NCBI GenBank assembly: GCA_044451405.1
Contig: JBIOKB010000011.1
Span: 1 to 27,762 of the forward strand
DNA from: Candidatus Babeliales bacterium
GTDB lineage: Bacteria > Babelota > Babeliae > Babelales > Vermiphilaceae
Direction of reading: 5' to 3'
DNA length: 27,762 nt
Shown here: piece by piece, positions 2,279 through 27,563 of the stretch
How positions within the stretch are numbered: position 1 is the first letter of the stretch
How the letters are laid out: each line of letters opens with the position of its first letter
Made by a program: the position numbers and the translations under genes
The notes under the pieces: generated by a model
What the model saw: the letters and a program-made list of their open reading frames with translations, nothing else
Database searches by the model: none
Told to the model about the DNA's origin: nothing

Positions 2279-2301
2279 TACATTACATAGTACATAACAG
2301 A

Positions 2302-2336
2302 AACACCCGGAGTAAGAACCCTTACATCCGGGTGTT
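2302..2336 (+). terminator. Stem-loop downstream of the FtsH-like gene (probable terminator)
   Basis: AACACCCGGA-GTAAG / AACC loop / CTTAC-A-TCCGGGTGTT: 15-bp stem with one bulge, about 24 nt after the stop. The U-tract is short. Confidence 0.6.
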
Positions 2337-2420
2337 ATGCTTAAATTCTGCCCGCAGCCAGGCGTGAACAATGCTTTCAATAAGCTGATCCGATCGAATC
2401 AATATAATTTTATCCCCCGT
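2337..2420 (-). pseudogene. Diverged relic of the rpiB 3' region
   Basis: 2337-2365 is identical to 4369-4397 (29 bp). The minus frame reads TGDKIILIRSDQLIESIVHAWLRAEFKH, versus RpiB ..VIVIPADFVDCEYGLDIVYAWLRAEFKH. Confidence 0.65.
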
Positions 2421-2493
2421 TCGCCCTCCATCCTACTTTAGGCCTATAACCCCCTAAAGTCCCCTATGCCTTAACCAGAACACCTCCCACCAC

Positions 2494-2521
2494 TTGCATA
2501 TTCAAATAGAATATATATCAT
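2494..2521 (+). promoter_or_regulatory. Putative sigma70 promoter
   Basis: TTGCAT-N16-TATCAT upstream of the ankyrin gene. Confidence 0.4.
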
Positions 2522-2557
2522 AAATAATAAAGTATTAAAAATGCCCTAAAAAATAGA

Positions 2558-3514
2558 ATGGTTATTATGCATTTGTTATCTCTATTACTTATAGCAGCCT
2601 CTTTTTATATCCCTCTTCAAGCTTCTGAAGAGCAGGCTAGACAAAAGAGTGCCTTAGAAGCTGCCATGGCGTCTAAAAAATCTCCTGAGCAAGAACGGCA
2701 AGAAAAACTAAAAGATGCAATTATAAAAGGCAATGTTGAAACAACACAATCATTATTAGATGCTAAAGCAAATCCTAATGCCTCAACAAATACCGACGAC
2801 CAATATTATTATCCATTTTTAGTGATGGCAGTTAATGCAAGCCCTACCATTAGAGAGGTACCAAAACCAACTTTGGGCAAAACTGATGCCGTTGTAAAAC
2901 TTCTATTATCATATAAAGCCAATGTAAACGCTCATACCGGATTTGAGTGCAGAACCGCTTTATTAGAGTCTATCGATTACAATAATTCCCTACTTGTCAG
3001 GCTTATTCTTGATCACCAAGCTGATGTACATCATCGGGATATCAATGGACGTAATGCTCTTTTTGAAACACTTCGATATTTGCTCTATCGCGATAAAAAG
3101 TTTGTAGAAACTTACCAAACATTTGGGTATAACGATCTCGACGGAACATATTTAACACATCTTATTCTTACTCATCCTGAAACAACTGCCGATGATGTTC
3201 AACATGCATATTTTAGAATTAACCAGGATTATATTGATCCTGAAGACATGTATACTGATATACATCTGGAAAAAATGCACGCTCTCACTAATGCACGCAC
3301 ATACGCTTACGAATGCAGCAGAATTGAATTGCGAGAACTATTAAAGAAATTTGCTCATGAAAATGGTCTTCAAGAAAAATTGGCCCCGGGCATAATGGCT
3401 TATATCGCTGATTACGCCGCTTTATATCATCACATTCCTGAACACACTTTTCAGATCAAAGAATATCGCGATAATCCTAAAAACAAACAACTTATTCTGT
3501 ATAAAGGTTCTTAA
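2558..3514 (+). CDS. Secreted ankyrin-repeat protein with C-terminal F-box-like motif
   Basis: N-terminal signal peptide. Ank repeats: AIIKGNVETTQSLLDAKANPN, VVKLLLSYKANVN, RTALLESIDYNNSLLVRLILDHQADVHHRDINGRNAL. C-terminal LAPGIMAYIADY. Confidence 0.8.
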   Translation: MVIMHLLSLLLIAASFYIPLQASEEQARQKSALEAAMASKKSPEQERQEKLKDAIIKGNVETTQSLLDAKANPNASTNTDDQYYYPFLVMAVNASPTIREVPKPTLGKTDAVVKLLLSYKANVNAHTGFECRTALLESIDYNNSLLVRLILDHQADVHHRDINGRNALFETLRYLLYRDKKFVETYQTFGYNDLDGTYLTHLILTHPETTADDVQHAYFRINQDYIDPEDMYTDIHLEKMHALTNARTYAYECSRIELRELLKKFAHENGLQEKLAPGIMAYIADYAALYHHIPEHTFQIKEYRDNPKNKQLILYKGS

Positions 3515-3529
3515 AAAATGGAGATAATC

Positions 3530-4300
3530 ATGTCTATTAAATCAATGTTTATTAAACTTGTAATCTTAACCACCTGTATAGCATCGCACAGCTATGCCAT
3601 GGATTTCTTACAGCAACGTGTTATTACCCCTATTAAAGAGAAGATTGAAAAGCAGAAACACGCAGCATTAACTCAACAAGTCAGACAAATTCGCAGGAAA
3701 TACGACCGTAACACGTTATGTTATTTAGCAAGCCCAAAAGTGACTGATCCACAGCTTATCACCATATATGGTCAGATAGGCGGCAAACCACATCGCAGAA
3801 GCTTTGAGGGATTCAGCCCTTTACACCATTTTGCTATCGGAACATGGGAACTTACTGATACTCAATTAGAAAAGCTTAAACGACTTGTTGTATTTGGAGT
3901 TCCTTTAAATCGTCCCGTTAAAGCAGGAACCTTAAAAGGACTTCCCCCTATCTCCCTACTAAAAGCTCGTATGCTTCTCAATATCAATAATACGGAAGAA
4001 ATGGCTCAGTGTATTGCAATACAAAATGGTATACAGGATGGAATACGAGAAAGAAAATTGAGTATAATTAAGTTATTTGACGCGAATCCTCAATTACCTG
4101 CTCCTTTAATCAGAATAATTCTTACGTATAGTGAATCAGAGCTTCGCCATCTTCCACAACGTAAAATTATTGATACAAAAGATAGATTGTCAAAATATTT
4201 GGAAGAAAAAAAACGAGAAAAAGAACGAGAAAGACGTCGTTTAGAAGAAGATGCTGAACGAGAACTAGATAGAATAGGACGAATGGCTATTGGATTTTAA
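3530..4300 (+). CDS. Secreted hypothetical protein with degenerate ankyrin-like repeat, F-box-like motif and coiled-coil tail
   Basis: GGAG RBS before ATG 3530. Signal peptide ending SYA-MD; FSPLHHFA...LVVFGVPLN; LPAPLIRIILTY; E/R/K-rich tail. Confidence 0.6.
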   Translation: MSIKSMFIKLVILTTCIASHSYAMDFLQQRVITPIKEKIEKQKHAALTQQVRQIRRKYDRNTLCYLASPKVTDPQLITIYGQIGGKPHRRSFEGFSPLHHFAIGTWELTDTQLEKLKRLVVFGVPLNRPVKAGTLKGLPPISLLKARMLLNINNTEEMAQCIAIQNGIQDGIRERKLSIIKLFDANPQLPAPLIRIILTYSESELRHLPQRKIIDTKDRLSKYLEEKKREKERERRRLEEDAERELDRIGRMAIGF

Positions 4301-4314
4301 AGAGCATTAACGCA

Positions 4315-4761
4315 CTATTTAACGCCGCCCACGTTATCAATCATATCAAGGCGATCTTGGTAATGATCATGCTTAAATTCTGCCCGCAGCCAGGCGTATA
4401 CGATATCCAAGCCATACTCACAATCAACAAAATCTGCTGGAATCACTATAACATTCACGTTATCATCTTCTACTGCCTTAAAGGCGATGATCTCATTCCA
4501 CGCTACTGCAGCATAAATACCCGCAAAGCGATTTGCGATAATTGCCATGCCTGCCCCTGAGCCACAGATAAGAATCGCTTTTTGTGCCATACCGTTATGA
4601 ATATCATGGCATGCTGCAATGGCAAACTCAGGATAATCACTTGGTTCATTTGTATAGGCACCGACATCAATCCAGCCTATGGGTTTATCCCATACAAAAT
4701 TTTGTTTGATAAACTCTTTGTGTGCAAATCCTCGGTGATCGGCACCGATAATTAATTTCAT
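4315..4761 (-). CDS. rpiB: Ribose-5-phosphate isomerase B (RpiB/LacA/LacB family)
   Basis: IIGADHRG, SDYP, ILICGSGAGMAIIANRFAGIYAA motifs; 148 aa. Confidence 0.92.
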   Translation of the reverse strand: MKLIIGADHRGFAHKEFIKQNFVWDKPIGWIDVGAYTNEPSDYPEFAIAACHDIHNGMAQKAILICGSGAGMAIIANRFAGIYAAVAWNEIIAFKAVEDDNVNVIVIPADFVDCEYGLDIVYAWLRAEFKHDHYQDRLDMIDNVGGVK

Positions 4762-5654
4762 GCAGGGACTTCCTCTATAGAAGGCAATTCGTAATCATCA
4801 ACTGAGGGAATAAAAAGTTCTTGTGTTTCGGGTGCTTCGGGCGTCATGGTTGTTTCTTCTGGCATAACGGGCTGTATTTCTTGCTGCTCTTGGGTCGCCT
4901 CGGGTTGTGCGGCACTTTCCTGAACACTGTTTGATACTTCTGGCACCGACTGCTCTTCAGTTACTTCAGGAGCTGGAACTGTTTCTGGGATCTCAGTTAC
5001 TTCCTGCTCTTCATTATTTTCAGTAACAAGCGCAGGAACATTTACTTGCCAGCTGAGTATCGCTTCTTTTTCAATAGAACGGAAATGGAGATCCATAGTT
5101 TGCGCATCTTCAGTTATTAACGGTTTACCATCAGGTGTCTTAGCATTGAATTTTACCAAATATATGGATTTAAAGCGATTATAGCATTTGCCAAAAAATG
5201 CCTTAAATTCAGGTGTTAATTCCGTTACCCGTATCTCATTTGGCGCTACGGTGGTTTCCCCAACGGTTAAAAAGAATGCCCACGTATTATTCTGATCACC
5301 AATATTTAAGCTGAAATTTGTAAGCACGTAAAAGGAGATAAAATGTTTATTTTCTTCAAGCTGACGGCGTAAAAATGCTTTAGTCATCTGCTCATTTTTA
5401 CCATTTTTAACACCGTACGTTTGTGCATAGACAGTTCTTACTTCATCAGAAAGCCAGAGTGCATCAATTAATGCAACAGTACTAAATTGACGGTGAATGT
5501 AGGCTGAACGGAGATAATTGCGTGGAACTTTACTCACCGGTTCTAGAATTTCACCTTGATCAAAATTACTTTCTGCCCATCGAATAACATGGCCGCAGCC
5601 TGGTAACCCCATCAAACAGATAGCCATTGCTGCTAATTGATATATACGCTTCAT
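4758..5654 (-). CDS. Lipoprotein with acidic Pro/Glu-rich C-terminal tail
   Basis: Lipobox LPG-C after a hydrophobic stretch; low-complexity E/P/Q/T tail; ATGA overlap with the rpiB start. Confidence 0.7.
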   Translation of the reverse strand: MKRIYQLAAMAICLMGLPGCGHVIRWAESNFDQGEILEPVSKVPRNYLRSAYIHRQFSTVALIDALWLSDEVRTVYAQTYGVKNGKNEQMTKAFLRRQLEENKHFISFYVLTNFSLNIGDQNNTWAFFLTVGETTVAPNEIRVTELTPEFKAFFGKCYNRFKSIYLVKFNAKTPDGKPLITEDAQTMDLHFRSIEKEAILSWQVNVPALVTENNEEQEVTEIPETVPAPEVTEEQSVPEVSNSVQESAAQPEATQEQQEIQPVMPEETTMTPEAPETQELFIPSVDDYELPSIEEVPA

Positions 5655-5744
5655 AATTCACCTTCTTTTTTTTACACTCAACGTACTCAAGTATCCTAAA
5701 AAAACCCTCTATAATTTACAAGCTCTACATCATTAAGGAGTTAT

Positions 5745-6974
5745 ATGAACTACCAAAGCTTCTATCTTGCCTGGCGCTACATGAAAAGCAGCCATACAGA
5801 AAAAACAATTGCACTTATGACCAAACTCTGTTTCTGCGGCATTGTTATCAGCACGTTTTCCCTCACGCTCGTGCTCTTTGTTATGCGTGGTTTTGAAAAA
5901 GAAACCCATGCAAAATTGCAAGGGGTACATGCGCATATCATCATGCGTGGGTATGGACAACCGCTTAATTATCCGCACATAGCAGAAATACTCAGCGCAG
6001 AATTCCGTGAAATACAGGCGTTTAGCCCGACGAGTATGCGGCAGGTTCTTGTACAAACTGAAGAAGATGAACCCCAAGTCGTTATTATTAAAGGCATCGA
6101 TCCAGCAGCAGAAGCAACAGTAAGCTCATTGAGAAGTAAAATTATAGGACAACAGCGCACTCCCATTACTCTTGCCGATGCGGTACATGATGATCACCTT
6201 ATTATTGGTTCCCAACTTGCAAAAACGCTCGATGTTATGCCCGGTGATTCCATAACGTTGCTCTTTGCTGAATCAGAAAAAGCACGATCACGTAAAATAA
6301 TATTTGATGAACAAGAAGCTATCGTAAGCGGCATTTTTACTACCGGCATTGATGAATTTGATGCAGGAATTATCATCTGCTCGCTACCCTTTTTAAACCA
6401 GCTATTTCCCGATGCGGGCATTGATCAGATTAATCTCACCCTTGCATCATCAGCCCATGAACACACTGTTGTTGAGCGACTCAAAAAGCGATTTGATCTT
6501 GAAGTATATTCATGGAAAGACCTGTACCCTGCATTAGTTTCTGCATTAAAACTTGAAAAATATGCAATGCTCATTATTTTTGCGCTCATTGCGCTTGTTG
6601 CAAGCATGAGTATTATTTCACTGCTTTTTATGCAAATTACCCAAAAGCGTGGTGATATTGCCATTTTAAAAGCCATGGGAACATCTAATAGTACCATTGC
6701 ATCCATTTTTCTTATCATGGGCATGAGCATAGCCTTTGTAAGCTGTATGTGTGGCATAGTGCTTGCTCTTGGTGCAGGATGGTTCTTGCAACAGTACCCG
6801 TTAATAACCTTACCTGACGTCTACTATGTATCACACATACCCGTCACTATAGAATGGCATCTTATTGCCATGGTTATCGGCATTGTGATGTTGTTAAGCT
6901 TTATTGCTACCTGGATACCAGCACAAAAGGCGCGCTCGCTGATTGTTGCCCACGTGTTACGCTTTGAGGCATAA
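5745..6974 (+). CDS. lolE: LolC/LolE-family lipoprotein-releasing ABC permease
   Basis: LAWRY N-terminus; TM then VMRGFE; IIKGIDP; VSGIFTTGIDEFD; SWKDLYPALVSALKLEK; QKRGDIAILKAMG; PDVYYVSHIP; ATWIPA...LRFE. AAGGAG RBS. Confidence 0.88.
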   Translation: MNYQSFYLAWRYMKSSHTEKTIALMTKLCFCGIVISTFSLTLVLFVMRGFEKETHAKLQGVHAHIIMRGYGQPLNYPHIAEILSAEFREIQAFSPTSMRQVLVQTEEDEPQVVIIKGIDPAAEATVSSLRSKIIGQQRTPITLADAVHDDHLIIGSQLAKTLDVMPGDSITLLFAESEKARSRKIIFDEQEAIVSGIFTTGIDEFDAGIIICSLPFLNQLFPDAGIDQINLTLASSAHEHTVVERLKKRFDLEVYSWKDLYPALVSALKLEKYAMLIIFALIALVASMSIISLLFMQITQKRGDIAILKAMGTSNSTIASIFLIMGMSIAFVSCMCGIVLALGAGWFLQQYPLITLPDVYYVSHIPVTIEWHLIAMVIGIVMLLSFIATWIPAQKARSLIVAHVLRFEA

Positions 6975-7001
6975 TAGTATGATTATATAATAAGGAGCTC
7001 T

Positions 7002-8177
7002 ATGATTCCCCGTACGTCATTATTACCGACCTTTAATCTGCACAATAAACGCGTATTTGTGCGTGCTGATTTAAATGTGCCTATCAAACAGGGAATCATC
7101 AGTAACGATTATCGCTTACAAGCAGTGTTACCTACGCTGAATTATATTCAGAAAGCTGGCGGTAAGATTATCCTGGCAACCCACATTGGGCGGCCTCATG
7201 GCGTTGACCCTGCGCTCAGCACCCGAATTTTAGTACCCTGGTTTACTCAGCATGGGTATTCAGTACACTTCCAGCCTGATCTCGATAACGCATATAGTAA
7301 TAGCGTTAAAGATCCTGACACGATACTGCTCCTTGAAAATCTGCGTTTTTTTCCTGGAGAGCAGAATGCTGACACTTCATTTGCACAGAAACTCGCATCA
7401 TTAGGCGATTATTATGTTGATGATGCGTTTGGCGCCCTACATCGTACTGATGCATCAATTACGCTCACGCCAACATTTTTTAGTCCTGATAAACGCACCA
7501 TAGGTTTTTTAGTTGAGCGTGAACTGCAGATGCTTGATCGCTTACTCAAACCAGAACAACCGTTGAGCCTTATTCTTGGCGGTGGAAAAGTGGCCGATAA
7601 GATACCCATCATTAATGCATTACTGCCACGCATTCATGCATTATTATTATGCCCTGCCATTTCAAATACATTTGTAAAAGCTCTTGGCAACCCAATGGGA
7701 AAATCTCTGATTGATGAAGCTGCCATACCGCTCTGCAAAGAAATAATGGATCGTGCGCAAGAATTGGGTGTTATCGTATATGTGCCTGTTGATTATTATG
7801 CTGCGCGTGATTCTTTTAACGGACCACTCATTCCTGATCCTATTGATGCGCATGCATTCCCTGATGATGCCATTGCTATCAACATAGGTCCCAAAACCGT
7901 TGCATTATATGCACGCGAATTCATGAAAGATCATACACTTTTTATCAATGGACTTATGGGGGACGTAAACAGACCTGAAACATTGAAAGGCACAGAACTT
8001 CTGTATGCTGCCATTGGCCAATCGCCTGCGTTCAGCATCATTGGCGGTGGCGATTCGGTAGCTGCTGCCTATCAATTAGGCAAAGCATCTTCTTTTGATT
8101 ATCTATCAACCGGTGGCGGCGCTACACTTGCATATATCAGCGGGCAAGAATTGCCAGGGCTATCATGCATTACGTAA
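7002..8177 (+). CDS. pgk: Phosphoglycerate kinase
   Basis: VFVRADLNVP, THIGRP, LLENLRF, DAFGALHR, GGGKVADK, IIGGGDS, STGGGA motifs. Confidence 0.97.
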   Translation: MIPRTSLLPTFNLHNKRVFVRADLNVPIKQGIISNDYRLQAVLPTLNYIQKAGGKIILATHIGRPHGVDPALSTRILVPWFTQHGYSVHFQPDLDNAYSNSVKDPDTILLLENLRFFPGEQNADTSFAQKLASLGDYYVDDAFGALHRTDASITLTPTFFSPDKRTIGFLVERELQMLDRLLKPEQPLSLILGGGKVADKIPIINALLPRIHALLLCPAISNTFVKALGNPMGKSLIDEAAIPLCKEIMDRAQELGVIVYVPVDYYAARDSFNGPLIPDPIDAHAFPDDAIAINIGPKTVALYAREFMKDHTLFINGLMGDVNRPETLKGTELLYAAIGQSPAFSIIGGGDSVAAAYQLGKASSFDYLSTGGGATLAYISGQELPGLSCIT

Positions 8178-18493: not shown

Positions 18494-18550
18494 CCAGGCG
18501 TAGCTTAACACTGCCTGAGGTTTAACTTCGATAGTAAGAGCGAAGACTGG
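18494..18550. repeat. Related palindromic repeat overlapping the tRNA CCA end
   Basis: Minus strand CCAGTCTTCGCT...AAGCTACGCCTGG; arms resemble CCAGCCTACGCT...AAGCTWCGGCGG of copies A/B. Confidence 0.55.
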
Positions 18551-18624
18551 TGCGCCCGACAGGGATTGAACCTGCGGCCTACAGATTAGGAATCTATCGC
18601 TCTATCCAACTGAGCTACGGGCGC
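18548..18624 (-). tRNA. tRNA-Arg(CCT)
   Basis: GCGCCCG TAGCTCAGTTGGATAGAGC G ATAGA TTCCTAA TCTGT AGGCC GCAGG TTCAATC CCTGT CGGGCGC ACCA; 77 nt, encoded CCA. Confidence 0.97.
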
Positions 18625-18693
18625 AACCAGGATAAGGATAGCCAATTGGGGGATTATTGCGACCTTTTTTGTAAAAACCAGGCCCCATGGCTA

Positions 18694-18721
18694 TTGACAA
18701 ATAAAAAATATTTGAGACAAT
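18694..18721 (+). promoter_or_regulatory. Putative sigma70 promoter
   Basis: TTGACA-N16-GACAAT with TG-n; GGAG RBS before ATG 18775. Confidence 0.45.
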
Positions 18722-18774
18722 TGTTAGTCCCAATAGATTTTTATTATTGAGAATTTAATACGTATGGAGCAAGT

Positions 18775-19545
18775 ATGAATATATATTCTTGGCTATTAGC
18801 CGGTATAACCATCCTAAGCATGGGGATAACCCAGGCAGGGGAAGCAATTTCTGGGGACAGGATAATGCGCAAGCACCCTGTGCGTATGATGCAAACAAGC
18901 CGCCAACACCCTATGCTATCACCCGCCTTATTAACAACTAAAAAATCACGAATCCGGAAACAACGCCCTAAGCCTGCCACCAAAGATATAGGGGTACAAA
19001 CTAACCCTATCATTCAAGACAGGATGTTGCCACGCCCCACAGAACATACTGATGTTGGGCATAATACTCATAGTTCACCCCCTTCACCACATCCTCTATC
19101 ATCAACCAGTCTTGGCCAAAAACAAGAAAGCAGCGATGTGCTCCATTTAGCTGCGGCCGAGATAATCTTGCCAAGTTTTGGCGAGCGAGCATCTCACGTT
19201 AAAAGTTCTGTTCTTTCTGAAAGAGATTTGTTTCTACTAGAAGTAGGAGCAAAATTGGCTCGCGTACACCAAAAAAATCACATCGCATTAAATTTCGAAG
19301 CTATAGAATTAGATGCTTTCGATAATCCTTCTGATGACAGACTAGATAAAGAAATCGAACAAATGGGAAAGCGAAAACATTATGCACGTTATAACGGACT
19401 AGTTCCGAGGTTGTCAGAAAATAAACATGCAAAAGTTGTGAGAGGATACGCGCAAGAAAACCGTGTATGGAAAGCTGAACAAGATCAATTGCGCAAGACA
19501 AAACAAGCTCACAAAGCAATTTTAATATCTATGAGTAGCAGATAG
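18775..19545 (+). CDS. Secreted hypothetical protein, basic and disordered N-terminal half
   Basis: GGAG RBS; signal peptide ending TQA; 256 aa. Confidence 0.65.
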   Translation: MNIYSWLLAGITILSMGITQAGEAISGDRIMRKHPVRMMQTSRQHPMLSPALLTTKKSRIRKQRPKPATKDIGVQTNPIIQDRMLPRPTEHTDVGHNTHSSPPSPHPLSSTSLGQKQESSDVLHLAAAEIILPSFGERASHVKSSVLSERDLFLLEVGAKLARVHQKNHIALNFEAIELDAFDNPSDDRLDKEIEQMGKRKHYARYNGLVPRLSENKHAKVVRGYAQENRVWKAEQDQLRKTKQAHKAILISMSSR

Positions 19546-19619
19546 AGAATCACACCATTGCATCTTACCGTAACACTGCGTAGAGTAACAACAAAGTAAT
19601 TACGCATGAGTGGTAAAGG

Positions 19620-20465
19620 ATGTTAATGCGCAGATACTCCATAGCATATCTTTGTATGATCGCACTACCGCTAGCAGCCAGTGATACCGTACAACCAGTA
19701 CACGATAATATTACCATCCAACAAATTGGACCACTTTTCTGCTTTGGACAAAACATACTACCGCGCAACACCGTTACCGTACGCGCTATCCCCTTTTACT
19801 ACAAACAAACACACCATTCATTCAGCTATATGTCAGCACAGCTGTTGTACGGCGTGACTGATCAATTAGTATTACTATTTGATACGCCCATCATCTTTAA
19901 CAATCATGGATATGGGAACACCCATCGCCTGGGTGACGTGCGCATACAAGCTGAATATGCGTATTACAAAAAAAGAGACGCTTCTAAAAGTATTGAGGCC
20001 ACAGTGCTTGGCAACTGCATCATTCCGCGTACATTTTCTACAGACAGAAATCCATTAACGGCAGGAGAAACCAGTTTCTTTTTTGGCACGACTGCGAGTT
20101 ATCTTACTGATTGGTACGCATATGCTTCACTGGGGGGCAGAATTGTTAATCCATTTAAAAGCACCCATTTTGGTAATCAGGTACTCTATGAATGGATTAT
20201 TGGACACAGACTCCCTGATATCCCTCACGTGAATACCTATCTTCTTATTGAATCAAATGGCATCTACACACAAAAAGATACCATTCACGGTTCATCCGAT
20301 CCCAATACGGGAAGCAATCTCATCTACTGCGGTCCAGTACTGGTGGTAACTTCTATTAATTGGGCATTGCTTGCGGGCGTACAAGGTGTAGCAACACAGC
20401 ATCGCAATGGCAATCAAGAACCATTTAATCTCCGCGCATCACTCATGCTTGTGTATAAATTTTAA
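19620..20465 (+). CDS. Outer-membrane beta-barrel protein, probable COG4313/MetA-pathway-like channel
   Basis: Signal peptide; LLYGVTD.L.L...P; LGDVRIQAEYAYY; GNQVLY; DPNTGSNLIYCGP; C-terminal VYKF barrel signal. Confidence 0.65.
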   Translation: MLMRRYSIAYLCMIALPLAASDTVQPVHDNITIQQIGPLFCFGQNILPRNTVTVRAIPFYYKQTHHSFSYMSAQLLYGVTDQLVLLFDTPIIFNNHGYGNTHRLGDVRIQAEYAYYKKRDASKSIEATVLGNCIIPRTFSTDRNPLTAGETSFFFGTTASYLTDWYAYASLGGRIVNPFKSTHFGNQVLYEWIIGHRLPDIPHVNTYLLIESNGIYTQKDTIHGSSDPNTGSNLIYCGPVLVVTSINWALLAGVQGVATQHRNGNQEPFNLRASLMLVYKF

Positions 20466-20477
20466 AGAAGTAGGATA

Positions 20478-20894
20478 TTACCGCTTAATCTTATTAATTT
20501 TCCACCTAGACGGTCCACCACTTGGGGGTATCACTACATCAATGATATCACCATCTGATATTTGAGTTGGATTGTCGGTTGAAAGACCACAATCACATGA
20601 TTCAGAAGGACGAGAATCATAATCTATTGAATAACAGGGAGCAGAAGAATTGCAGGTGCCCTTAAAATACCCATAAAAACAAATTTGATCTTGTGTTGCT
20701 GTTACTTGAGCTGAAGTGCTCGGGGCAATTGTTTTTAAAAGCTTAGGCTGTTGCATTGGAGCGCAGTTTTGCCAGACGTCTATCGTAATTTTTGATGATT
20801 TATTATTAATGGTAACTGTCTTTTCTTTTGCCCCAACAGACGCAGTAGCTATAAGACAAAGACACAGTATGCTTCTTTTCACGTGACCCTCCAT
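20478..20894 (-). CDS. Small Cys-rich secreted hypothetical protein
   Basis: Signal peptide ending VGA; six Cys in the mature part. The true start may be GTG (VKRSIL) after GGAGG. Confidence 0.6.
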   Translation of the reverse strand: MEGHVKRSILCLCLIATASVGAKEKTVTINNKSSKITIDVWQNCAPMQQPKLLKTIAPSTSAQVTATQDQICFYGYFKGTCNSSAPCYSIDYDSRPSESCDCGLSTDNPTQISDGDIIDVVIPPSGGPSRWKINKIKR

Positions 20895-21025
20895 TCAATT
20901 ATACGTTAAAGATTTTCTATACCATCATGATAGAAAGTATCGCGGCTAAAACGCAAGTTCTAGCAACCATACACAGGTCTATGATAGCATGCCTTTACTA
21001 TCACTATTTTATTTAAGGATAATCC

Positions 21026-21481
21026 ATGAATGCAATCATTAAAACGTCGTTGTGGTGTATACTTGCGTGTCTTATTACTCCTATAACCGTGCATGCTGGT
21101 GAAGAAGTAAAAAAGAAAATGGAAGAAGTGCCCAGCGAAGCTCTTTCCTGGTCAGATAACCTCTCTATAAAAATGTATGGCAATGAGTCTTTTACCAAAA
21201 CATCAAATTATATTCGTCTTACACCAGGGCAAAAGAAAACATTCTTTGAAGAATGGATACAGCATGGCATCAACAACAATCTCTTTATGGATATGTGTAA
21301 TGCGCGGAGAAATGCCGTAAGCGCTGGTATAACAATAAACTCCCAACTTCTTGCACAAGCGGCTGAAATCATAACACGAGATATGCATGAAGGAATGATA
21401 TTCTTAACAAAAACGTTACCTGCTGAGCGCGTACACGGGATTGGAAAGGATCTTGAAAAGTTGAGTACAGTAAAAGAGTAA
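21026..21481 (+). CDS. Secreted hypothetical protein
   Basis: AAGGA RBS; signal peptide ending VHA; 151 aa. Confidence 0.65.
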   Translation: MNAIIKTSLWCILACLITPITVHAGEEVKKKMEEVPSEALSWSDNLSIKMYGNESFTKTSNYIRLTPGQKKTFFEEWIQHGINNNLFMDMCNARRNAVSAGITINSQLLAQAAEIITRDMHEGMIFLTKTLPAERVHGIGKDLEKLSTVKE

Positions 21482-21713
21482 GAAATTGCCCCCTGGTTGA
21501 TATGTTCAGGAACCGACAAATACGCTTTGATTTCAGTTTGCAGAACATCCAGACCGTGTTTTCTGAGCTGGGCCTTGTTTCATCAGCAACGTATATTACT
21601 ACTGCTTAAAGGTGCAAAGACAGGACATATTTGTACGTGGAATAACCAACTCAGCCTTTTAATAGAAAAAAAAGATGCCATAATTTTAGTCTGCAAATGA
21701 AAGGACTAAAATT

Positions 21714-22922
21714 ATGGCATCGTCATCAAAAAAACATTTGGAAAATCTTAGAATATTATACGACAAAGCTCAAGAAACACGCTTATTAAAAATCTTTGTT
21801 CTCTCTTTATTAGATTTTGTACATGAAACTGAAGTTAATCCAAATCTACAGTCCATTATAAATCAACTTCTTAAAGAAGAAGAGATACGCAACAGTAATT
21901 TTCATGAGCTACGAAATTCCGCTACAGAGGAACTTAATACCCTATATAGTACATACAAATCTTATATGGGGTCTTCAGCACCGTATGATTCATTTTATGC
22001 GTATGGAAACGATGATCCTCAGCGATGTATAGATACTACACGAGACTTTCTGATAGAAAGACATAGCATACTTACAGATTTGCTTAGCCAATTAGTGAAG
22101 CAAGATCCTGCTCATATCCCCTTCATCGCACAATTTGCAGATGTACAATGCCTTTTAACCAATAGAGATGCTGCCTATAAAATACACCTATCGTTAAAAA
22201 CTCCTAGGTATAACAAGTGGCTTAAAGAAGCAGAGGATAGAGAATATGGAAATGCAGCTGAGCCGTTTTATCATTGGAATATTATTGCTTGGATATATCA
22301 AGTTCACAAAAATGGTGAAAGTGTAGCACAAGAATTGTATAACAAAGGCAAAGTACTTGAATCTACAAGGGTAATTGGATTTCGTCGAATATTGAAGAAT
22401 ATTTTACTATCGCCCAATGAACAAGGCTCTGGCATAACTTCTTCGCAAGTTGAAAATTTTAAGTATAGCCTGCAAAAAGTATGGCTTTATATACAAGAAA
22501 AATCAGAAAACGAAGAAACTTCTACAGAAAAACTATCCCTAGATATTGTTACCATTCCATCAGCAGAAGAGCCTAATCTTTTTAAAGGATATGACACATC
22601 AACAAAAACACTATTAATTGGCGCTCATAAGATACAATTCAAAAAAAAGGGATACCAGGGTCCAATCTTAACCATTCTAACTAAAGACGATGAATGCCTG
22701 CATGATGAATGGCCTTGGGATGAGGTTTACGAGAAAACTCAATACAACGTACCAAGCGGTTCAAAAACAAGAATAAAAAAACACAGGCGTAGATTATACC
22801 ATGCTTATGAACATTTAAATGAACAAGTATTTAAGCAAAGCAATGGCAAAATAAGCTACTTCTTGATCTTCAATATGGATAGCGTTCGCATCAATCCGAT
22901 ATACCTAGCTCATAAGTTTTAA
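21714..22922 (+). CDS. Hypothetical protein with helical N-terminal domain and probable C-terminal winged-helix DNA-binding domain
   Basis: AAGGA RBS. The C-terminal pattern YD..TKTLLIG..KIQF....QGPILTIL....W.WDEVYE....RRLYHAYEHLNEQV....YFL......VRINP resembles the OmpR/ToxR-type wHTH layout. Confidence 0.6.
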   Translation: MASSSKKHLENLRILYDKAQETRLLKIFVLSLLDFVHETEVNPNLQSIINQLLKEEEIRNSNFHELRNSATEELNTLYSTYKSYMGSSAPYDSFYAYGNDDPQRCIDTTRDFLIERHSILTDLLSQLVKQDPAHIPFIAQFADVQCLLTNRDAAYKIHLSLKTPRYNKWLKEAEDREYGNAAEPFYHWNIIAWIYQVHKNGESVAQELYNKGKVLESTRVIGFRRILKNILLSPNEQGSGITSSQVENFKYSLQKVWLYIQEKSENEETSTEKLSLDIVTIPSAEEPNLFKGYDTSTKTLLIGAHKIQFKKKGYQGPILTILTKDDECLHDEWPWDEVYEKTQYNVPSGSKTRIKKHRRRLYHAYEHLNEQVFKQSNGKISYFLIFNMDSVRINPIYLAHKF

Positions 22923-22972
22923 TAACAAGTCCCATACCTAATTTATCCTTTTAAATAAAGCATTTTTAGCCC

Positions 22973-23020
22973 CTAGGTCTACTGCTAGGTCTGAGTAAGT
23001 ATACATCGTGCCCCTATACT
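22973..23020 (+). promoter_or_regulatory. Tandem CTAGGTCT repeats plus TATACT -10 box (activator-dependent, leaderless promoter candidate)
   Basis: CTAGGTCT at 22973 and 22985; TATACT at 23015-23020; ATG at 23028 with no RBS. Confidence 0.5.
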
Positions 23021-23027
23021 TTTACTC

Positions 23028-23216
23028 ATGATTAAAAAATGCAAAATCGATTCAAAGCTCATCGCCGAACAAGCTGATATACCCAATACAGGGTATGAGT
23101 TGTCCCCTGATGAACTTGATAGGGTTACTGCTTTTTATTCATTACTGATAAAAATCGACCGTAGGAATAAAGCTAAAGAGAAAGCGAGCAGTACTCATGC
23201 ACCACAACATAAATAG
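23028..23216 (+). CDS. Small hypothetical protein
   Basis: 62 aa; amphipathic helix LSPDELDRVTAFYSLLIKIDRR; first ORF of the replication operon. Confidence 0.55.
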   Translation: MIKKCKIDSKLIAEQADIPNTGYELSPDELDRVTAFYSLLIKIDRRNKAKEKASSTHAPQHK

Positions 23217-23463
23217 TGAATTACTAGCATTAAAAGAACATATGATACAGAACCTATTAGCCCCATCAGGGGCGATCATTCTAGATAATCAAAGACACAT
23301 TTACTCAGTAAACGTTAACGGTAAATCACAGGAGGCGTGCTATGTAGCAACAATCGATCCTATAGGAAAAATGGGCCTCGATTGCTCTGCTCCTATGGTC
23401 TTACCAATGAAAAAGAGCAGCACACGTACTCATCATCAGCGAATAAAAAATAGTTTTAAATGA
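23197..23463 (+). CDS. Small hypothetical protein
   Basis: 88 aa, overlaps the upstream ORF, same strand as the helicase. Confidence 0.4.
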   Translation: MHHNINSELLALKEHMIQNLLAPSGAIILDNQRHIYSVNVNGKSQEACYVATIDPIGKMGLDCSAPMVLPMKKSSTRTHHQRIKNSFK

Positions 23464-23467
23464 CAAA

Positions 23468-23487
23468 CCACTGGCGACAACCAGTGG
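23468..23487 (+). promoter_or_regulatory. Perfect 7-bp hairpin before the helicase gene
   Basis: CCACTGG-CGACAA-CCAGTGG, just upstream of the GAGGA RBS. Confidence 0.45.
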
Positions 23488-23509
23488 CATAAACCGAGGA
23501 AGATTTTGT

Positions 23510-25084
23510 ATGAATAATCATACCAGAAAAAAAGATTCTCGCCAAAGTTATACTAATCGCCAAAAGCTAATAAAAGCAGCTCAGGAAGAATGGATTGAGC
23601 AAGCACAGCAATTAGCAGAAAACAAAGCTGCTCTTGGGTACAAGGATTATCCATGGGATGAGTTTCTATTAATAGACCCTGCTAATGTAATAGATGCGGA
23701 CATGTCAATTCAAACCCAAATTATAGCTCTGCAAAATGGCTATAGGACGTTAAAACAACGTGAAGAGATTATCTTGGCTGAACCTAGAGTTGTAGCAGAT
23801 TTTAATATAAGACATGCGGTCGTCCATCTCGATCAAACATATACATTAACCGAAAAAATAAACACGCTGGGTTATAAAGACTTTTCACTTGAGAGTCGAC
23901 AGTCATTCAGAGCTTTTTATGAAGATGAAAGGGTTATGTGCATAGATGGGGTTGAACGCTGCAAGGCGGACATCTGGCTTCAAAGTCCTGAGCGGCGTAA
24001 ATATAAAGGGATTACGTTTGATCCAACTACAACAGAGTGTGGTAACGATTGCTATAACCTTTGGAAGGGATTTGCCAAACAACCAAAGCAAGGCGATGCT
24101 GCAAAATACTGGGATCATGTACGAGATAATATTTGTGGTGGAAATGAAGAGTTATACATCTACGTACGCAAATGGTTGGCATATGTGTTTCAACACCCTG
24201 ATAGGGTACATACAGCCTTAGTATTATGCGGATCACAAGGTGTTGGTAAAAATAGCTTTGTTGAACCATTGGGAGTACTGCTCGGAACTCATTATGCGCC
24301 GCTCAGCAGTATTACCGAGCTTGTTTCCAACTTTAATTACCACCTTAAAAACGCTGTGCTTATTCACGCGAATGAAGCGCTCTGGGGCGGTAACAAGAAG
24401 GAACTTGGTACTGTAAAAGCAATGATCACTGAACATACATGCCTTATTGAAGGTAAAGGCAAAGATCGTATTGTGGTTCGCAATTTTAAACACGTCATTT
24501 TAAGCAGCAATGAAGATTGGCCAGTACACCTTGATCCGGATGATCGACGTTTTGTAGTTATTACTGTTTCAGAAAAACGCAAAGAGGATCATACGTATTT
24601 TGAAGCAATCCATGATCAATTACACGATGGCGGGTATGAAGCATTACTTTATGATTTATTACATGAAGATATAAGCACTTTTAATCCGCGTAAAATGCCT
24701 GCTAATTTAGATGCTTTTGATATAAAAATGCGCAGTGCGGAATCGGCACATCGCTATATTTTTGAGGCATTATCAGAAGGAGGTTTGTCTATAGGTAAAT
24801 TACCTGAAACGGATGCTCCTGTATGGCAGGATTCAATACCAAAAGATGTCATATATGCAGATTATGTAGCATGGTGTGAAAAAAGTGGTGAAGAAGCTCT
24901 GCCCAAAGATCAATTTTGCAAGATATTTAAAAAGCTTATCCCATCTACAGAAGATACACGACCTGCTGCTGAACATCGCGTACGTCACTTCAAATTGCCT
25001 TCATTAAGAAAATCACAAGAGGAGTTTTGCAAGATATTTAAAGAAAAACCGGAACGTCTTTTTGAGAACTATGAAATTGCTTAG
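23510..25084 (+). CDS. Phage/plasmid primase-associated helicase (DUF5906/D5-like P-loop NTPase), no primase domain evident
   Basis: GITFDP, YNLWKGF, WLAY.FQHP, Walker A GSQGVGKN, NEALWGGNKK, EGKGKD, LSSN...DDRRF, C-terminal IYADYVAWC winged-helix-like region. Confidence 0.85.
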   Translation: MNNHTRKKDSRQSYTNRQKLIKAAQEEWIEQAQQLAENKAALGYKDYPWDEFLLIDPANVIDADMSIQTQIIALQNGYRTLKQREEIILAEPRVVADFNIRHAVVHLDQTYTLTEKINTLGYKDFSLESRQSFRAFYEDERVMCIDGVERCKADIWLQSPERRKYKGITFDPTTTECGNDCYNLWKGFAKQPKQGDAAKYWDHVRDNICGGNEELYIYVRKWLAYVFQHPDRVHTALVLCGSQGVGKNSFVEPLGVLLGTHYAPLSSITELVSNFNYHLKNAVLIHANEALWGGNKKELGTVKAMITEHTCLIEGKGKDRIVVRNFKHVILSSNEDWPVHLDPDDRRFVVITVSEKRKEDHTYFEAIHDQLHDGGYEALLYDLLHEDISTFNPRKMPANLDAFDIKMRSAESAHRYIFEALSEGGLSIGKLPETDAPVWQDSIPKDVIYADYVAWCEKSGEEALPKDQFCKIFKKLIPSTEDTRPAAEHRVRHFKLPSLRKSQEEFCKIFKEKPERLFENYEIA

Positions 25085-25095
25085 TGTGTTACTGC

Positions 25096-25319
25096 GTCCA
25101 TGATACTGTCCAGGATAAACCATGTAATAAAGTACGTTAAATACAGTATCGGTCCATATAGACCATGCAGTCCATGCTGTTGCAGCGCCATAATTATCTA
25201 CAGCACAAAAAACAGTCTTAAAAAATTGGATAATAAAATTGCGTGGACTATATGGACTCCCTGGACAATGCCCTCTGGATCGCTGTTTTTGAATATCACC
25301 GCGTGGACCGATCATGGAC
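25096..25319. repeat. Inverted iteron arrays flanking an AT-rich core (putative replication origin)
   Basis: GTCCA at 25096, 25108, 25152, (GACCA 25161), 25170; TGGAC at 25244, 25253, 25262, 25304, 25315. Confidence 0.75.
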
Positions 25320-25334
25320 AGAAAAGGAGAAAGC

Positions 25335-26354
25335 ATGACCTTACTTGAATTAGCACATCAAACAGGTATTAACCCTAAATGGGTTGCTTCTACTGCAGGA
25401 GGAGAATTTCATTCTTCGTGTCCGCAGTGTGGTGGTACTGATCGTTTTTACATACAACCATATCGACAAATGAGTAAATGTGTTGGCTCTTATTGCTGCC
25501 GCCAGTGCGGCATTAATGGGGATGCTATTCAATTTGCGCGACAGTTTCTACATCTTTCATTTCAAGAAGCTGCAGCTATGGTAAATGCGGTTATTAAAGA
25601 AACACCATTATATGGTTTTAAACAGCTGCATGAACCACAAGCAGCGCCATTAAAAGTACCGCCAACTTTGTGGAAAGAACAGGCTACAGCATATGTTGAA
25701 CGCGCACATGCATTATTGTTACACAAGGCAGATATTCTCGATTTTTTAGCGCGTAGAGGACTACCTCTTGAAGCAGTACAACGGTATAAATTTGGCTGGT
25801 CTGATAGTAATGAATTCTTACCAAGATCAGCGTGGGGATTAGATGAGCAATGTGCAGATGGCAAACCACACAAATTATGGATACCTAATGGCCTTGTGAT
25901 CCCTACCAGGCAAGCAAATGGGCAAGTGCTGCGCTTGAAAGTGCGACGGTTTGATTGGAAGGAGAATGACAAGTTACCCAAGTATGTTGCCATCTCAGGA
26001 AGCATGAATGGACTGAATATCATAGGTGATACAAAACAACCCTGTATGATAATAGTTGAGTCAGAGCTTGATGCGTATGCAATTGATTATGTAGCACATG
26101 ATATTGCTTGTGCTGTTGCCGTAGGCAGCAATGTAAAAAATCCAGACAATATAACTGATCTCTATGCAAAGAAAGCGTCACGTCTTTTGATTTGTCATGA
26201 TAATGACGCGGCAGGAATACAGATGCTTAAGAAATGGAAACATTTATACCCACATGCTCGAGCTTTTCCAACACCTATAGGCAAAGATATCGGGGAAGCA
26301 ATACAACAGGGGTTTAATATAAGGGAATGGCTACTTCAGAAAGGCTTGAAATAA
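25335..26354 (+). CDS. Zn-ribbon + TOPRIM DNA primase (phage/plasmid DnaG-like)
   Basis: AAGGAG RBS before ATG 25335; CPQCGGTDRF...CRQCG..GDAI.F.....SF.EA; FLARRGL; PKY; IIVESELDA; CHDNDAAG; KDIGE. Confidence 0.87.
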   Translation: MTLLELAHQTGINPKWVASTAGGEFHSSCPQCGGTDRFYIQPYRQMSKCVGSYCCRQCGINGDAIQFARQFLHLSFQEAAAMVNAVIKETPLYGFKQLHEPQAAPLKVPPTLWKEQATAYVERAHALLLHKADILDFLARRGLPLEAVQRYKFGWSDSNEFLPRSAWGLDEQCADGKPHKLWIPNGLVIPTRQANGQVLRLKVRRFDWKENDKLPKYVAISGSMNGLNIIGDTKQPCMIIVESELDAYAIDYVAHDIACAVAVGSNVKNPDNITDLYAKKASRLLICHDNDAAGIQMLKKWKHLYPHARAFPTPIGKDIGEAIQQGFNIREWLLQKGLK

Positions 26355-27025
26355 TCGGAGCAAATTTTATCAGGATCATACACAGCATTCAATCCGTCTG
26401 GAACAAAAAAACCATAATAGCTATCGAGATATGGTTCCACTTTTGGTCCATACCAACTTATGAGCTCATGGTGTGAGGTATAAAACTTTTGCTCATCATG
26501 ATTGACGTATTTTTTCTTGAGACGGTGAAACGTCGACTGATGCATGCGCGGTGGCTTCTTATGCAAAGTGCCAGCATAATTTTGTAATGTCGTAACAACT
26601 TTGCCCTTCATATACTGGTGCCGTTCAGATGGGCGTAATCGTTGAGAAATATAACCCAAGTTAGCACATTTACGACACAGATATTTACCTTCTATGCAGT
26701 ACAATTTACGCATTCTCCTGTCACATTGTGGACAATGAAAGAAATGATAAAAGCCGCCAAAGTTGCATGGCTTTTTCTCTATAGGAATTACGTAAGAACC
26801 ATTGTTATACACGACATGAAGATTATCATTCTCTAATAACGTTGCTCGCAAATTATATTGAGGAATAATGAGCGAAACACGATCCTTACTCTCGCGTACA
26901 AATTGAACGAGTTGTTGATTTTTAAACATATCAAATGAATCGATCTCAGAGAAAGTAGACCACGTGCATAGAGCTTTTCTTTTATGCTTGCGCTTAACCT
27001 TCCAATACCAACCCCAATGCGTCAT
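26336..27025 (-). CDS. Zn-ribbon hypothetical protein
   Basis: AAGGAGG RBS before ATG 27025; PCNFGGFYHFFHCPQCDRRMRKLY....YLCRKC..LGY.SQR; KPPRMH.STF.RL. Confidence 0.7.
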   Translation of the reverse strand: MTHWGWYWKVKRKHKRKALCTWSTFSEIDSFDMFKNQQLVQFVRESKDRVSLIIPQYNLRATLLENDNLHVVYNNGSYVIPIEKKPCNFGGFYHFFHCPQCDRRMRKLYCIEGKYLCRKCANLGYISQRLRPSERHQYMKGKVVTTLQNYAGTLHKKPPRMHQSTFHRLKKKYVNHDEQKFYTSHHELISWYGPKVEPYLDSYYGFFVPDGLNAVYDPDKICSDYFKPF

Positions 27026-27245: not shown

Positions 27246-27563
27246 ATGAAGAAATTACTTATAGCGACTATGTTGATCATATCTACTCCGGTTTTAGCCG
27301 AGTTAGCGTTTTACCATAATGGGGTACCTTATTCAAGGGGTGCTGCAAGCAATGTAAATCAACAAGAATATCAATGGCTTTTCGGTTATTGCTTACAGCA
27401 TTTTTATCCTAGAGGATATGCTGAGTTAAGTGCGTATGAATTATCAGTAATTTTTCGCTATTTAAAAGGAATAGGAACTCCTGCTGCATTGCGATTAATT
27501 CATGATCTTGAAGAGATGATAAAAGAAGGAAGAAAAGACATGAAACGAATTGAAAAACTGTAA
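27246..27563 (+). CDS. Small secreted hypothetical protein
   Basis: AGGGA RBS; MKK signal peptide ending VLA. Confidence 0.7.
   Translation: MKKLLIATMLIISTPVLAELAFYHNGVPYSRGAASNVNQQEYQWLFGYCLQHFYPRGYAELSAYELSVIFRYLKGIGTPAALRLIHDLEEMIKEGRKDMKRIEKL

Follow-up and report, generated by a model that had tools for sequence, protein, structure and literature searches.

A run of genes between positions 21714 and 27025 of a 27,762-base contig, the whole of which is the window analyzed here, has the parts of a replicon, and the question it raises is what kind of genetic unit it belongs to. The initial annotation proposed a satellite-like replicon, built of a winged-helix-like protein, a repeat-bearing promoter, two small open reading frames (ORFs), a hairpin, a helicase, a symmetric iteron array, a primase, and a convergent zinc-ribbon gene overlapping the primase by 19 bp, and all of these parts are present in that order, the promoter being a putative one. 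Our reading, which we hold to be likely, is that a mobile element of about 7.5-11 kb is integrated in a Dependentiae (Babeliales-like) chromosome, and that this region makes up its left half, with the functions of replication and control. The module is real and conserved, and it is probably functional as the replication module of a family of integrative mobile elements.

The comparisons below draw on 58 related loci (labeled L001 and so on) obtained in one scan of species-representative genomes, and these come from Dependentiae, Chlamydiota, and Verrucomicrobiota-labeled genomes. The window contains a set of housekeeping genes, namely dnaA (10538-12025), pgk, lolC/E, psd, rpiB, and an amidase gene. 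Those relatives of the DnaA that carry a name belong to Candidatus Babeliales/Dependentiae (60-66% identity), and the host of the window is accordingly taken to be a Dependentiae bacterium. The probable intracellular bacterium of the initial annotation fits this assignment.

The replication core

The helicase is encoded on the plus strand at 23510-25084 as a stand-alone protein of 524 amino acids (aa). Pfam and PHROG place it as a superfamily 3 (SF3) helicase of the D5/DUF5906 type, with DUF5906 (PF19263) above its cut-off at E = 1.2 × 10−18 and further matches to VapE-like and Pox_D5 C-terminal families, and the Pfam scan finds no primase domain in it, neither AEP nor TOPRIM. The translation contains GVGKNS, which we take to be the Walker A motif, and DDRRF, and with these the protein has the Walker A, Walker B, and arginine-bearing motifs of a DUF5906/VapE-like P-loop core; residues G244, G246, K247, N248, D344, D345, R346, R347, and F348 are invariant across 24 sequences. 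The nearest solved structures by sequence are PDB ID: 6k9c and 6k9e, with E = 2.5 × 10−22 over residues 216-370, which we assume to be from phage NrS-1, the depositors' own name being only "Primase". At the C-terminus there are weak but consistent signs of a winged helix, namely Pox_D5 at 1.1 × 10−5, RFX DNA-binding at 2.4 × 10−3, and RFX5 at 1.5 × 10−3 over residues 433-492. The protein collection has 292 relatives; the best 120 of the 292 are 51-80% identical, and the few named ones among those 120 are Babeliales/Dependentiae. Relatives in the phage collection reach at most 36% identity, and in the fused primase-helicases among them (772 and 855 aa) only the C-terminal half aligns. The phage fused forms of phrog_1156, the phiVC8 group, are 31-36% identical to the helicase; NrS-1 and phrog_1156 proteins carry a primase in the same chain, whereas the window helicase stands alone.

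The primase is the next gene, at 25314-26354 on the plus strand. It matches Zn_Ribbon_Prim and Toprim_2, both above their cut-offs, and scores 1.8 × 10−6 against the DnaG structure PDB ID: 2au3. Residues C36, C39, C62, C65, E249, E251, D253, D296, and D298 are invariant across 25 sequences. The protein has what defines a DnaG-type primase, a zinc ribbon at the N-terminus and a TOPRIM catalytic domain whose conserved Glu and DxD are in place.

Within and around the 229-bp spacer between these 2 genes, at 25096-25319, are the mirrored iterons that we read as the origin. Nine of the window's 31 matches to GTCCA or its complement TGGAC fall in these 224 bp, and the strand split is perfect, with 4 GTCCA on the plus strand to the left (25096, 25108, 25152, and 25170) and 5 TGGAC, on the minus strand, to the right (25244, 25253, 25262, 25304, and 25315). 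On each side, 2 outer iterons are spaced 11-12 bp apart and the inner ones follow a 9-bp period; the middle copy of the left inner group is degenerate, and the right side has the mirrored inner triple along with its outer pair. Between the 2 sides is a 69-nt AT-rich center (25175-25243) with a GC fraction of 0.33, going down to 0.17 in the lowest 30-nt stretch. The iterons start 12 bp after the helicase stop codon, and the primase start codon sits inside the outermost right iteron. An 82-aa ORF runs across the origin (25100-25348) and has a tblastn match in L017, probably reflecting repeated iterons and not a gene.

The origin of the Staphylococcus aureus pathogenicity islands (SaPI), in the portions of PMC9371898 used here, has 6-12 penta- or hexanucleotide iterons directly downstream of rep, in oppositely oriented halves around an AT-rich region, and the protein that binds them, through a winged helix at its C-terminus, is a self-loading helicase that works with a separately encoded primase. 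The window has the same Rep-ori layout, with oppositely oriented iteron halves 3′ of the helicase and an AT-rich center (PMC9371898, same portions). The helicase-origin part thus repeats a known principle, that of a self-loading helicase at an origin of mirrored iterons; the novelty lies in the order of the genes, in the recombinase that goes with the module, and in the range of hosts. Because the arrangement matches the published SaPI origin, we read the window helicase as initiator and replicative helicase in one. Its C-terminal winged-helix domain would recognize the GTCCA pentamers, each mirrored array would receive one hexamer, and the AT-rich center would melt; the 2 SF3 rings would then move apart, with the DnaG-type primase encoded downstream priming both forks for the host polymerase. 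Polyomavirus and papillomavirus origins, in which 2 SF3 hexamers assemble on inverted pentanucleotide repeats by an AT-rich tract, may be compared as a functional analogy only, their hosts and DNA-binding domains being unrelated.

The mirrored layout is conserved among the relatives. By an exact 5-mer mirror score S, 17 of 31 helicase-primase spacers reach S ≥ 2 as against 18 of 293 control spacers of similar length, and 8 of the 31 reach S ≥ 3 as against 3 of the 293. The signal is strongest in Dependentiae-type loci; in many Chlamydiota-type spacers the repeats are degenerate and so escape a test for exact matches. The iteron sequence varies by helicase clade, being GTCCA as in the window, GTCAT(AG) in L009, L016, L024, and L037, GT(C/A)CAAG in L019, L031, L040, L041, and L047, and GGTCAT-like in L020, L021, L030, L036, and L054, with the mirrored layout, spacing, and symmetry kept. 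A layout that is kept around an iteron that changes is what would be expected of sites read by an element-encoded initiator.

Recurrence, mobility, and the integration end

A search for the same gene order in other genomes had been suggested as a check, and in this comparison 35 of the 58 loci have the primase after the helicase. Among the remaining 23, several contigs stop right after the helicase, and L043-L046 have longer helicase forms, with an N-terminal primase-type domain confirmed in L043 (NrS-1 polymerase-like) and in L045 (TOPRIM). None of the window's chromosomal genes recurs beside the module, the surroundings being different every time, and several genomes have more than one copy (L009/L013, L011/L048, and two in L026). 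Because the chromosomal flanks are not shared and some genomes hold 2 copies, the module is mobile. The initial idea of a mobile self-replicating module with its origin between helicase and primase is supported.

Some of these loci have peculiarities of their own. The 2 helicase-primase modules of L026, at 10001-12717 and 18544-20728, are 8.5 kb apart. In L013 (Dependentiae), recombinase and accessory genes occur in several sets, which points to insertions in tandem or nested in one another. The short contigs L006 and L014 (labeled Pseudomonadota) and L011 and L048 (labeled Parachlamydiaceae) bear Dependentiae-type modules with a helicase identity of 54-64%, and with the zinc-ribbon gene in L048; this could be mis-binning or inter-phylum transfer.

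The same comparison bears on the idea that this is a core chromosomal replication module of Dependentiae, beside the chromosomal origin oriC. The cumulative GC skew has its minimum at about 22.5-23.5 kb, where it reverses from a fall to a rise at the element, dnaA being about 11 kb away, and the helicase is widespread with relatives on Mb-sized contigs, which would all suit an oriC module. Yet the flanking genes of the window are common to no relative, the insertions are beside different tRNAs, several copies can occur in one genome, and in 5 relatives both flanks are equal in skew sign with the element alone shifted. Because the flanks keep their sign in those 5, the skew shift belongs to the element and not to a chromosomal origin, and we reject the oriC reading as extremely improbable.

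Relaxed selection on the genes was named at the outset as something that would count against a replicon of this kind. In 5 closer pairs within the family, the ratio of nonsynonymous to synonymous substitution rates (dN/dS) is 0.06-0.16, supporting purifying selection on the element genes within the family; for the window against L001, dS is saturated. In a quick maximum-likelihood tree of 51 helicase rows, with fragments under 380 aa left out, the window helicase is in a 15-row clade with a Shimodaira-Hasegawa-like approximate likelihood ratio test (SH-aLRT) value of 98, and that clade includes all 9 recombinase-bearing loci and no tyrosine-integrase locus.

The recombinase is at the far end of the element. 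Dependentiae-type loci have the order ORF402-like gene (the counterpart of the window's winged-helix-like protein), small gene or genes, helicase, origin, primase, zinc-ribbon or other small genes, variable cargo, and serine recombinase, with a length of about 7.5-11 kb from the ORF402-like gene (in L010, from the first element gene) to the tRNA. The large serine recombinase (cluster c6, about 490 aa, 9 loci) has Resolvase, Recombinase, and Zn_ribbon_recom domains, and is found 0.1-5 kb downstream of the primase in L001, L002, L005, L008, L010, L012, and L013. In 7 of the 13 copies it runs toward a tRNA gene on the opposite strand, and the two overlap at their 3′ ends by 12-57 nt, at L001 19244-19319, L002 18783-18859, L005 17392-17468, L012 17491-17567, L010 14549-14623, L007 4309-4384, and L017 6049-6126. 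The overlapped tRNAs are of 5 species, Ala-GGC, Arg-TCT (twice), Asp-GTC, Asn-GTT, and Glu-TTC (twice). Serine recombinases ending inside tRNA genes are an unusual form of tRNA-site integration. The Chlamydiota/Verrucomicrobiota-labeled type has instead a tRNA (Met, Ser, Leu-TAA, or Asn), a tyrosine integrase, 1-2 genes, a small gene, helicase, origin, and primase; the tyrosine integrase (cluster c2) is present in 30 loci, and several Chlamydiota-type loci follow a conserved ribosomal-protein/rpoA/gapA block.

That no integrase is present, as first reported, holds for the window, where the scanned ORFs have no integrase, capsid, terminase, or conjugation family, but the family does have integrases, serine recombinase or tyrosine integrase next to tRNA. 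The simplest account of the recombinase not being seen is that the contig stops 1.4 kb past the primase. The recombinase is 3.2-5 kb beyond the primase in L001, L002, L005, and L012, and in the window this end of the element probably lies past the last base of the contig. There, at the far right, a large serine recombinase abutting a tRNA gene as in relatives would integrate and excise the element. At the left, the end of the element is bracketed only to about 21482-21674. A search for attachment (att) sites by blastn-short between element ends gives nothing in L001 or L005, and in the related loci L002 and L012 it finds only 10-11 nt of the tRNA 3′ end repeated, some 150 nt ahead of the ORF402-like gene (cluster c13), with E values of 0.5-2.

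The lack of a recombinase in the 1.4 kb between primase and contig end could alternatively mean that the window has a decayed or stranded remnant, a replication module left after loss of the recombinase end, and broken copies do occur in relatives, where c13 is split in L012 and both helicase and primase are split in L040 and L041. The window nevertheless has all its conserved genes at full length, their catalytic motifs intact, together with complete, symmetric iteron arrays, and the contig end suffices to explain the missing part, all of which make a remnant unlikely.

Control region and kind of element

The putative regulator of the element is ORF402 (cluster c13), a protein of 402 aa encoded at 21714-22922 on the plus strand. 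It has no Pfam, PHROG, or NCBIfam match, and a word-based search retrieved only the protein itself; an exhaustive profile search gave a family of 176 representatives at E ≤ 10−3, with 13-28% identity to ORF402 among 61 relatives. The AlphaFold2 (AF2) model, with a predicted local distance difference test (pLDDT) score of 91.4 from 62 aligned sequences, has a long helical N-terminal domain and then a C-terminal alpha/beta domain. Foldseek matches the latter, at about residues 290-395, to winged-helix DNA-binding domains of the OmpR/PhoB type, those of RstA, CovR, PhoB, VanR, and KdpE, at prob 0.87-0.98 and target-normalized template modeling scores (TM-target) up to 0.67; the entries include 2mlk (prob 0.98), 3rjp (prob 0.95, TM-target 0.67), and 1gxp (prob 0.90). 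An ORF402-like gene is at the equivalent position in L001, L002, L005, L006, and L012.

Around the ORF402 start, at 21674-21721 on the plus strand, is a perfect 19-bp inverted repeat with a 10-nt spacer that encloses a -10-like CATAAT, the ribosome-binding site, and the ATG. It folds as RNA at -27.4 kcal/mol (z -9.1) and is a candidate operator or translational hairpin. Hairpins with other arm sequences are at the equivalent place in L001 (z -6.0), L006 (-3.9), and L005 (-2.0), which suggests a conserved control element; none was found at that start codon in L002, L012, L017, L009, or L003. Between ORF402 and the replication operon is a tandem direct repeat, CTAGGTCT-N4-CTAGGTCT, at 22973-22992 on the plus strand (copies at 22973 and 22985, a 12-bp period), a candidate binding site for ORF402 as a winged-helix protein. 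L002 and L009 have exact direct repeats of 11-12-bp spacing at the equivalent position, and inspection by eye shows near-exact ones in L005 and L012. A spacing of 11-12 bp suits tandem winged-helix binding in the OmpR/PhoB family. ORF402, with a promoter and palindrome of its own, would then control the operon, probably through these 12-bp-spaced repeats in front of it. A sigma-70 consensus scan of the window found 18 sites where 21.8 were expected, and none at the leaderless promoter proposed upstream of the small ORFs.

How such an element might spread can be read in more than one way. One possibility, which we consider doubtful, is a phage satellite of the phage-inducible chromosomal island (PICI) kind, silenced by ORF402, induced by a Dependentiae helper phage, replicated from the origin, and packaged in helper capsids. 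The layout is satellite-like, with regulator, small genes, helicase, ori, primase, and an integrase next to tRNA. The ORF402 family evolves fast by the identities given above, and satellite repressors evolve fast. A terS-like protein (phrog_2538, E = 1.4 × 10−11) comes after the primase in L016, in a cluster, c14, of 7 members found in 6 Chlamydiota-type loci. Minimal satellites defined by int, alpA, and a DUF5906/DUF3987 "primase" are also known, as the phage-inducible chromosomal minimalist islands (PICMI) described in the portions of PMC10803314 used here. Against a satellite, the window and the scanned cluster representatives of Dependentiae-type loci have no terS, capsid, or capsid-remodeling gene, nor any other packaging or capsid-redirecting gene of the kind of ppi and cpm, and the literature searches made gave no description of a Dependentiae phage or mobile element. 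Flanking sequence from an ordinary prophage was another outcome held to count against the initial proposal; in the relatives with 10-kb flanks, no capsid, large terminase, conjugation, or partition gene is present among 55 flank proteins scanned, these being a sample of the recurring gene clusters and not all flank genes.

As for the c14 gene, it is at 4380-4751 in L016 and is found also in L015, L022, L028, L039, and L054; its small protein is encoded next to the primase, on the downstream side, in L016 and L054, whereas the other loci have it at a different position.

The same gene content could also be that of an integrative plasmid-like element, which would excise, self-replicate, and spread without phage capsids, for example between bacteria sharing one protist cell, and we give this a real chance, short of an even one. 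Its replication module is complete, there are no packaging or conjugation genes among the proteins scanned, and some genomes have several copies. A plasmid of comparable content, which may or may not be kin to our element, is the 9.1-kb plasmid of the chlamydia-related Estrella lausannensis, with a primase, an integrase/recombinase, and an excisionase according to the sections of PMC4333871 consulted. On the other side, no partition or mobilization gene was seen among the proteins scanned, no free circular form has been observed, and the plasmid collection PLSDB holds no close relative, with 11 weak matches to the helicase and 1 weak match to the primase.

Comparison with described systems locates the element more closely. 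With SaPI and other PICI, as far as the portions of PMC9371898 go, it shares separate primase and helicase genes, an ori immediately 3′ of the helicase gene, and the form of a small integrative island. It differs in having the order helicase-ori-primase, not pri-rep-ori, in pairing a DUF5906/D5-type helicase with a DnaG-type zinc-ribbon/TOPRIM primase, in integrating (in the Dependentiae clade) by a large serine recombinase, in its Dependentiae and Chlamydiota hosts, and in the lack, among the Dependentiae-type proteins scanned, of any terS or capsid-morphogenesis gene. The likeness is architectural, because SaPI Reps are not detected by sequence. With P4, in which alpha combines initiator, helicase, and origin binding in one protein, there is a match of the helicase to TIGR01613, "phage/plasmid primase, P4 family, C-terminal", at 7.6 × 10−13, scoring 48 bits and so far below the family cut-off of 108.7, and fused TOPRIM-DUF5906 forms exist among distant relatives such as L045. 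The primase here is a separate downstream gene, however, and homologs of sid, psu, and delta were not found with PHROG or Pfam. The PICMI of Vibrionaceae are likewise small integrative elements, with an integrase, a small regulator, and a DUF5906/DUF3987 replication protein, but they integrate into fis, use AlpA, and differ in host phylum and accessory genes; a mirrored-iteron origin, present in the window, is not described in the portions of PMC10803314 used here.

Several observations weigh against the integrated mobile element as we read it. The element is known here from sequence alone, and the recombinase, att site, and tRNA partner are all unseen in the 27,762-base contig, whose sole tRNA, Arg-CCT at 18548-18624 on the minus strand, is 3 kb left of the element and in the wrong orientation. 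In the relatives, 6 of the 13 recombinase copies have no adjacent tRNA. As to the origin, 14 of the 31 loci have S ≤ 1 and the mirror statistic is not significant in most Chlamydiota-type spacers, while the co-variation of iteron and helicase C-terminus is confounded by phylogeny, L009 being the sole switch within a clade. A profile search of the PDB with the helicase gives 3 matches at E ≤ 0.01, and no SaPI Rep is among them. For ORF402, the winged-helix match is that of a predicted model, with whole-model E values of 0.35-1.1 that are not significant.

A broader claim, which we put forward as speculative, is that of an undescribed cross-phylum family of small self-replicating integrative elements, common to Dependentiae and Chlamydiota. 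In it, a core of helicase, mirrored origin, and primase would be joined either to a large serine recombinase that targets tRNA genes, its frame ending within the tRNA, or to a tyrosine integrase, and effector-like cargo such as ankyrin-repeat and small secreted proteins would be ferried between intracellular bacteria that meet in one host cell. If this is true, these would be the first mobile replicons recognized in Dependentiae, which are uncultured or barely cultured intracellular bacteria with small genomes; Chlamydiota likewise live inside protists. A compact replicon with an origin legible from its sequence offers a route to gene movement among protist-dwelling bacteria, a natural set of cognate helicase-iteron pairs for the study of SF3 helicase self-loading, and possibly a starting point for a shuttle vector in organisms without genetic tools.

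As for cargo, the variable stretch of related elements has 2 ankyrin-repeat genes (within the inferred element of L001), an Hsp70-like protein (L017), and the ORF105 family, of which the window also has a member. Effector cargo, foreseen in the initial annotation, thus finds modest support from the relatives, and not from the secreted-protein genes on the window's left, which are common to no relative and look like host flank.

Left of the element in L001, at 261-8050, there are 2 large proteins ending in an Ntox17 toxin domain, interleaved with 6 copies of a 134-279-aa protein family, an arrangement that resembles a polymorphic-toxin/immunity array.

Neighboring genes and minor features

Upstream of the helicase, the first of the 2 small frames, ORF62 (23028-23216, plus strand), is of doubtful reality, since it has no family match and among the related loci only a single 28-aa tblastn match, in L006. 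The second, ORF88 (cluster c19; 23197-23463, plus strand), is a conserved small protein that clusters with ORFs of 5 loci, L001, L005, L006, L009, and L017. A relation of ORF88 to SpoVG was considered and rejected, as PF04026 (4 × 10−10) matches a different cluster, c23, only and the c19 alignment is unlike SpoVG by eye. The SpoVG-like small protein with that match is encoded at L002 9676-9939, L003 9646-9924, L012 9614-9883, L017 9356-9610, and L013 16125-16394; in 4 of these 5 loci it is just upstream of the helicase, in the place that ORF88 has in the window, and in L013 it lies past the helicase, some 4.5 kb downstream. In the window, the gap from ORF88 to the helicase gene has, at 23468-23487 on the plus strand, a short hairpin with a 7-bp stem in the RNA fold (-12.4 kcal/mol, z -2.85), which the terminator scan lists only as a minus-strand terminator-like site.

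To the right of the primase, ORF229 (cluster c8) is encoded on the minus strand at 26336-27025, with its ATG at 27025, and is the convergent gene that overlaps the primase 3′ end by 19 bp. Its 4-Cys zinc ribbon (C98, C101, C117, and C120) is invariant, and the gene is present in 9 related loci. The AF2 model (pLDDT 78.5) has no PDB fold match at E ≤ 0.001, and its Atlas neighbors are all "hypothetical protein". Beyond it is ORF105 (cluster c29; 27246-27563, plus strand), a small protein with a signal-peptide-like N-terminus that recurs inside the related elements L004, L005, and L007.

Between tRNA-Arg(CCT) and the element (18548-21481), there are 4 orphan genes of 256, 281, 138, and 151 aa with signal-peptide-like N-termini, which have no family match and no counterpart beside related elements. 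Because the conserved element starts at ORF402 and these genes (18.8-21.5 kb) are absent beside relatives, they are probably host flank. An Rfam scan of the window gave nothing beyond the tRNA. At the far left of the window, at 2-2278, there is an FtsH-like AAA protein in which the Peptidase_M41 match covers only the first 38 positions of the domain, and after it, at 2558-3514, comes an ankyrin-repeat protein that weakly matches a family of Dot/Icm effectors.

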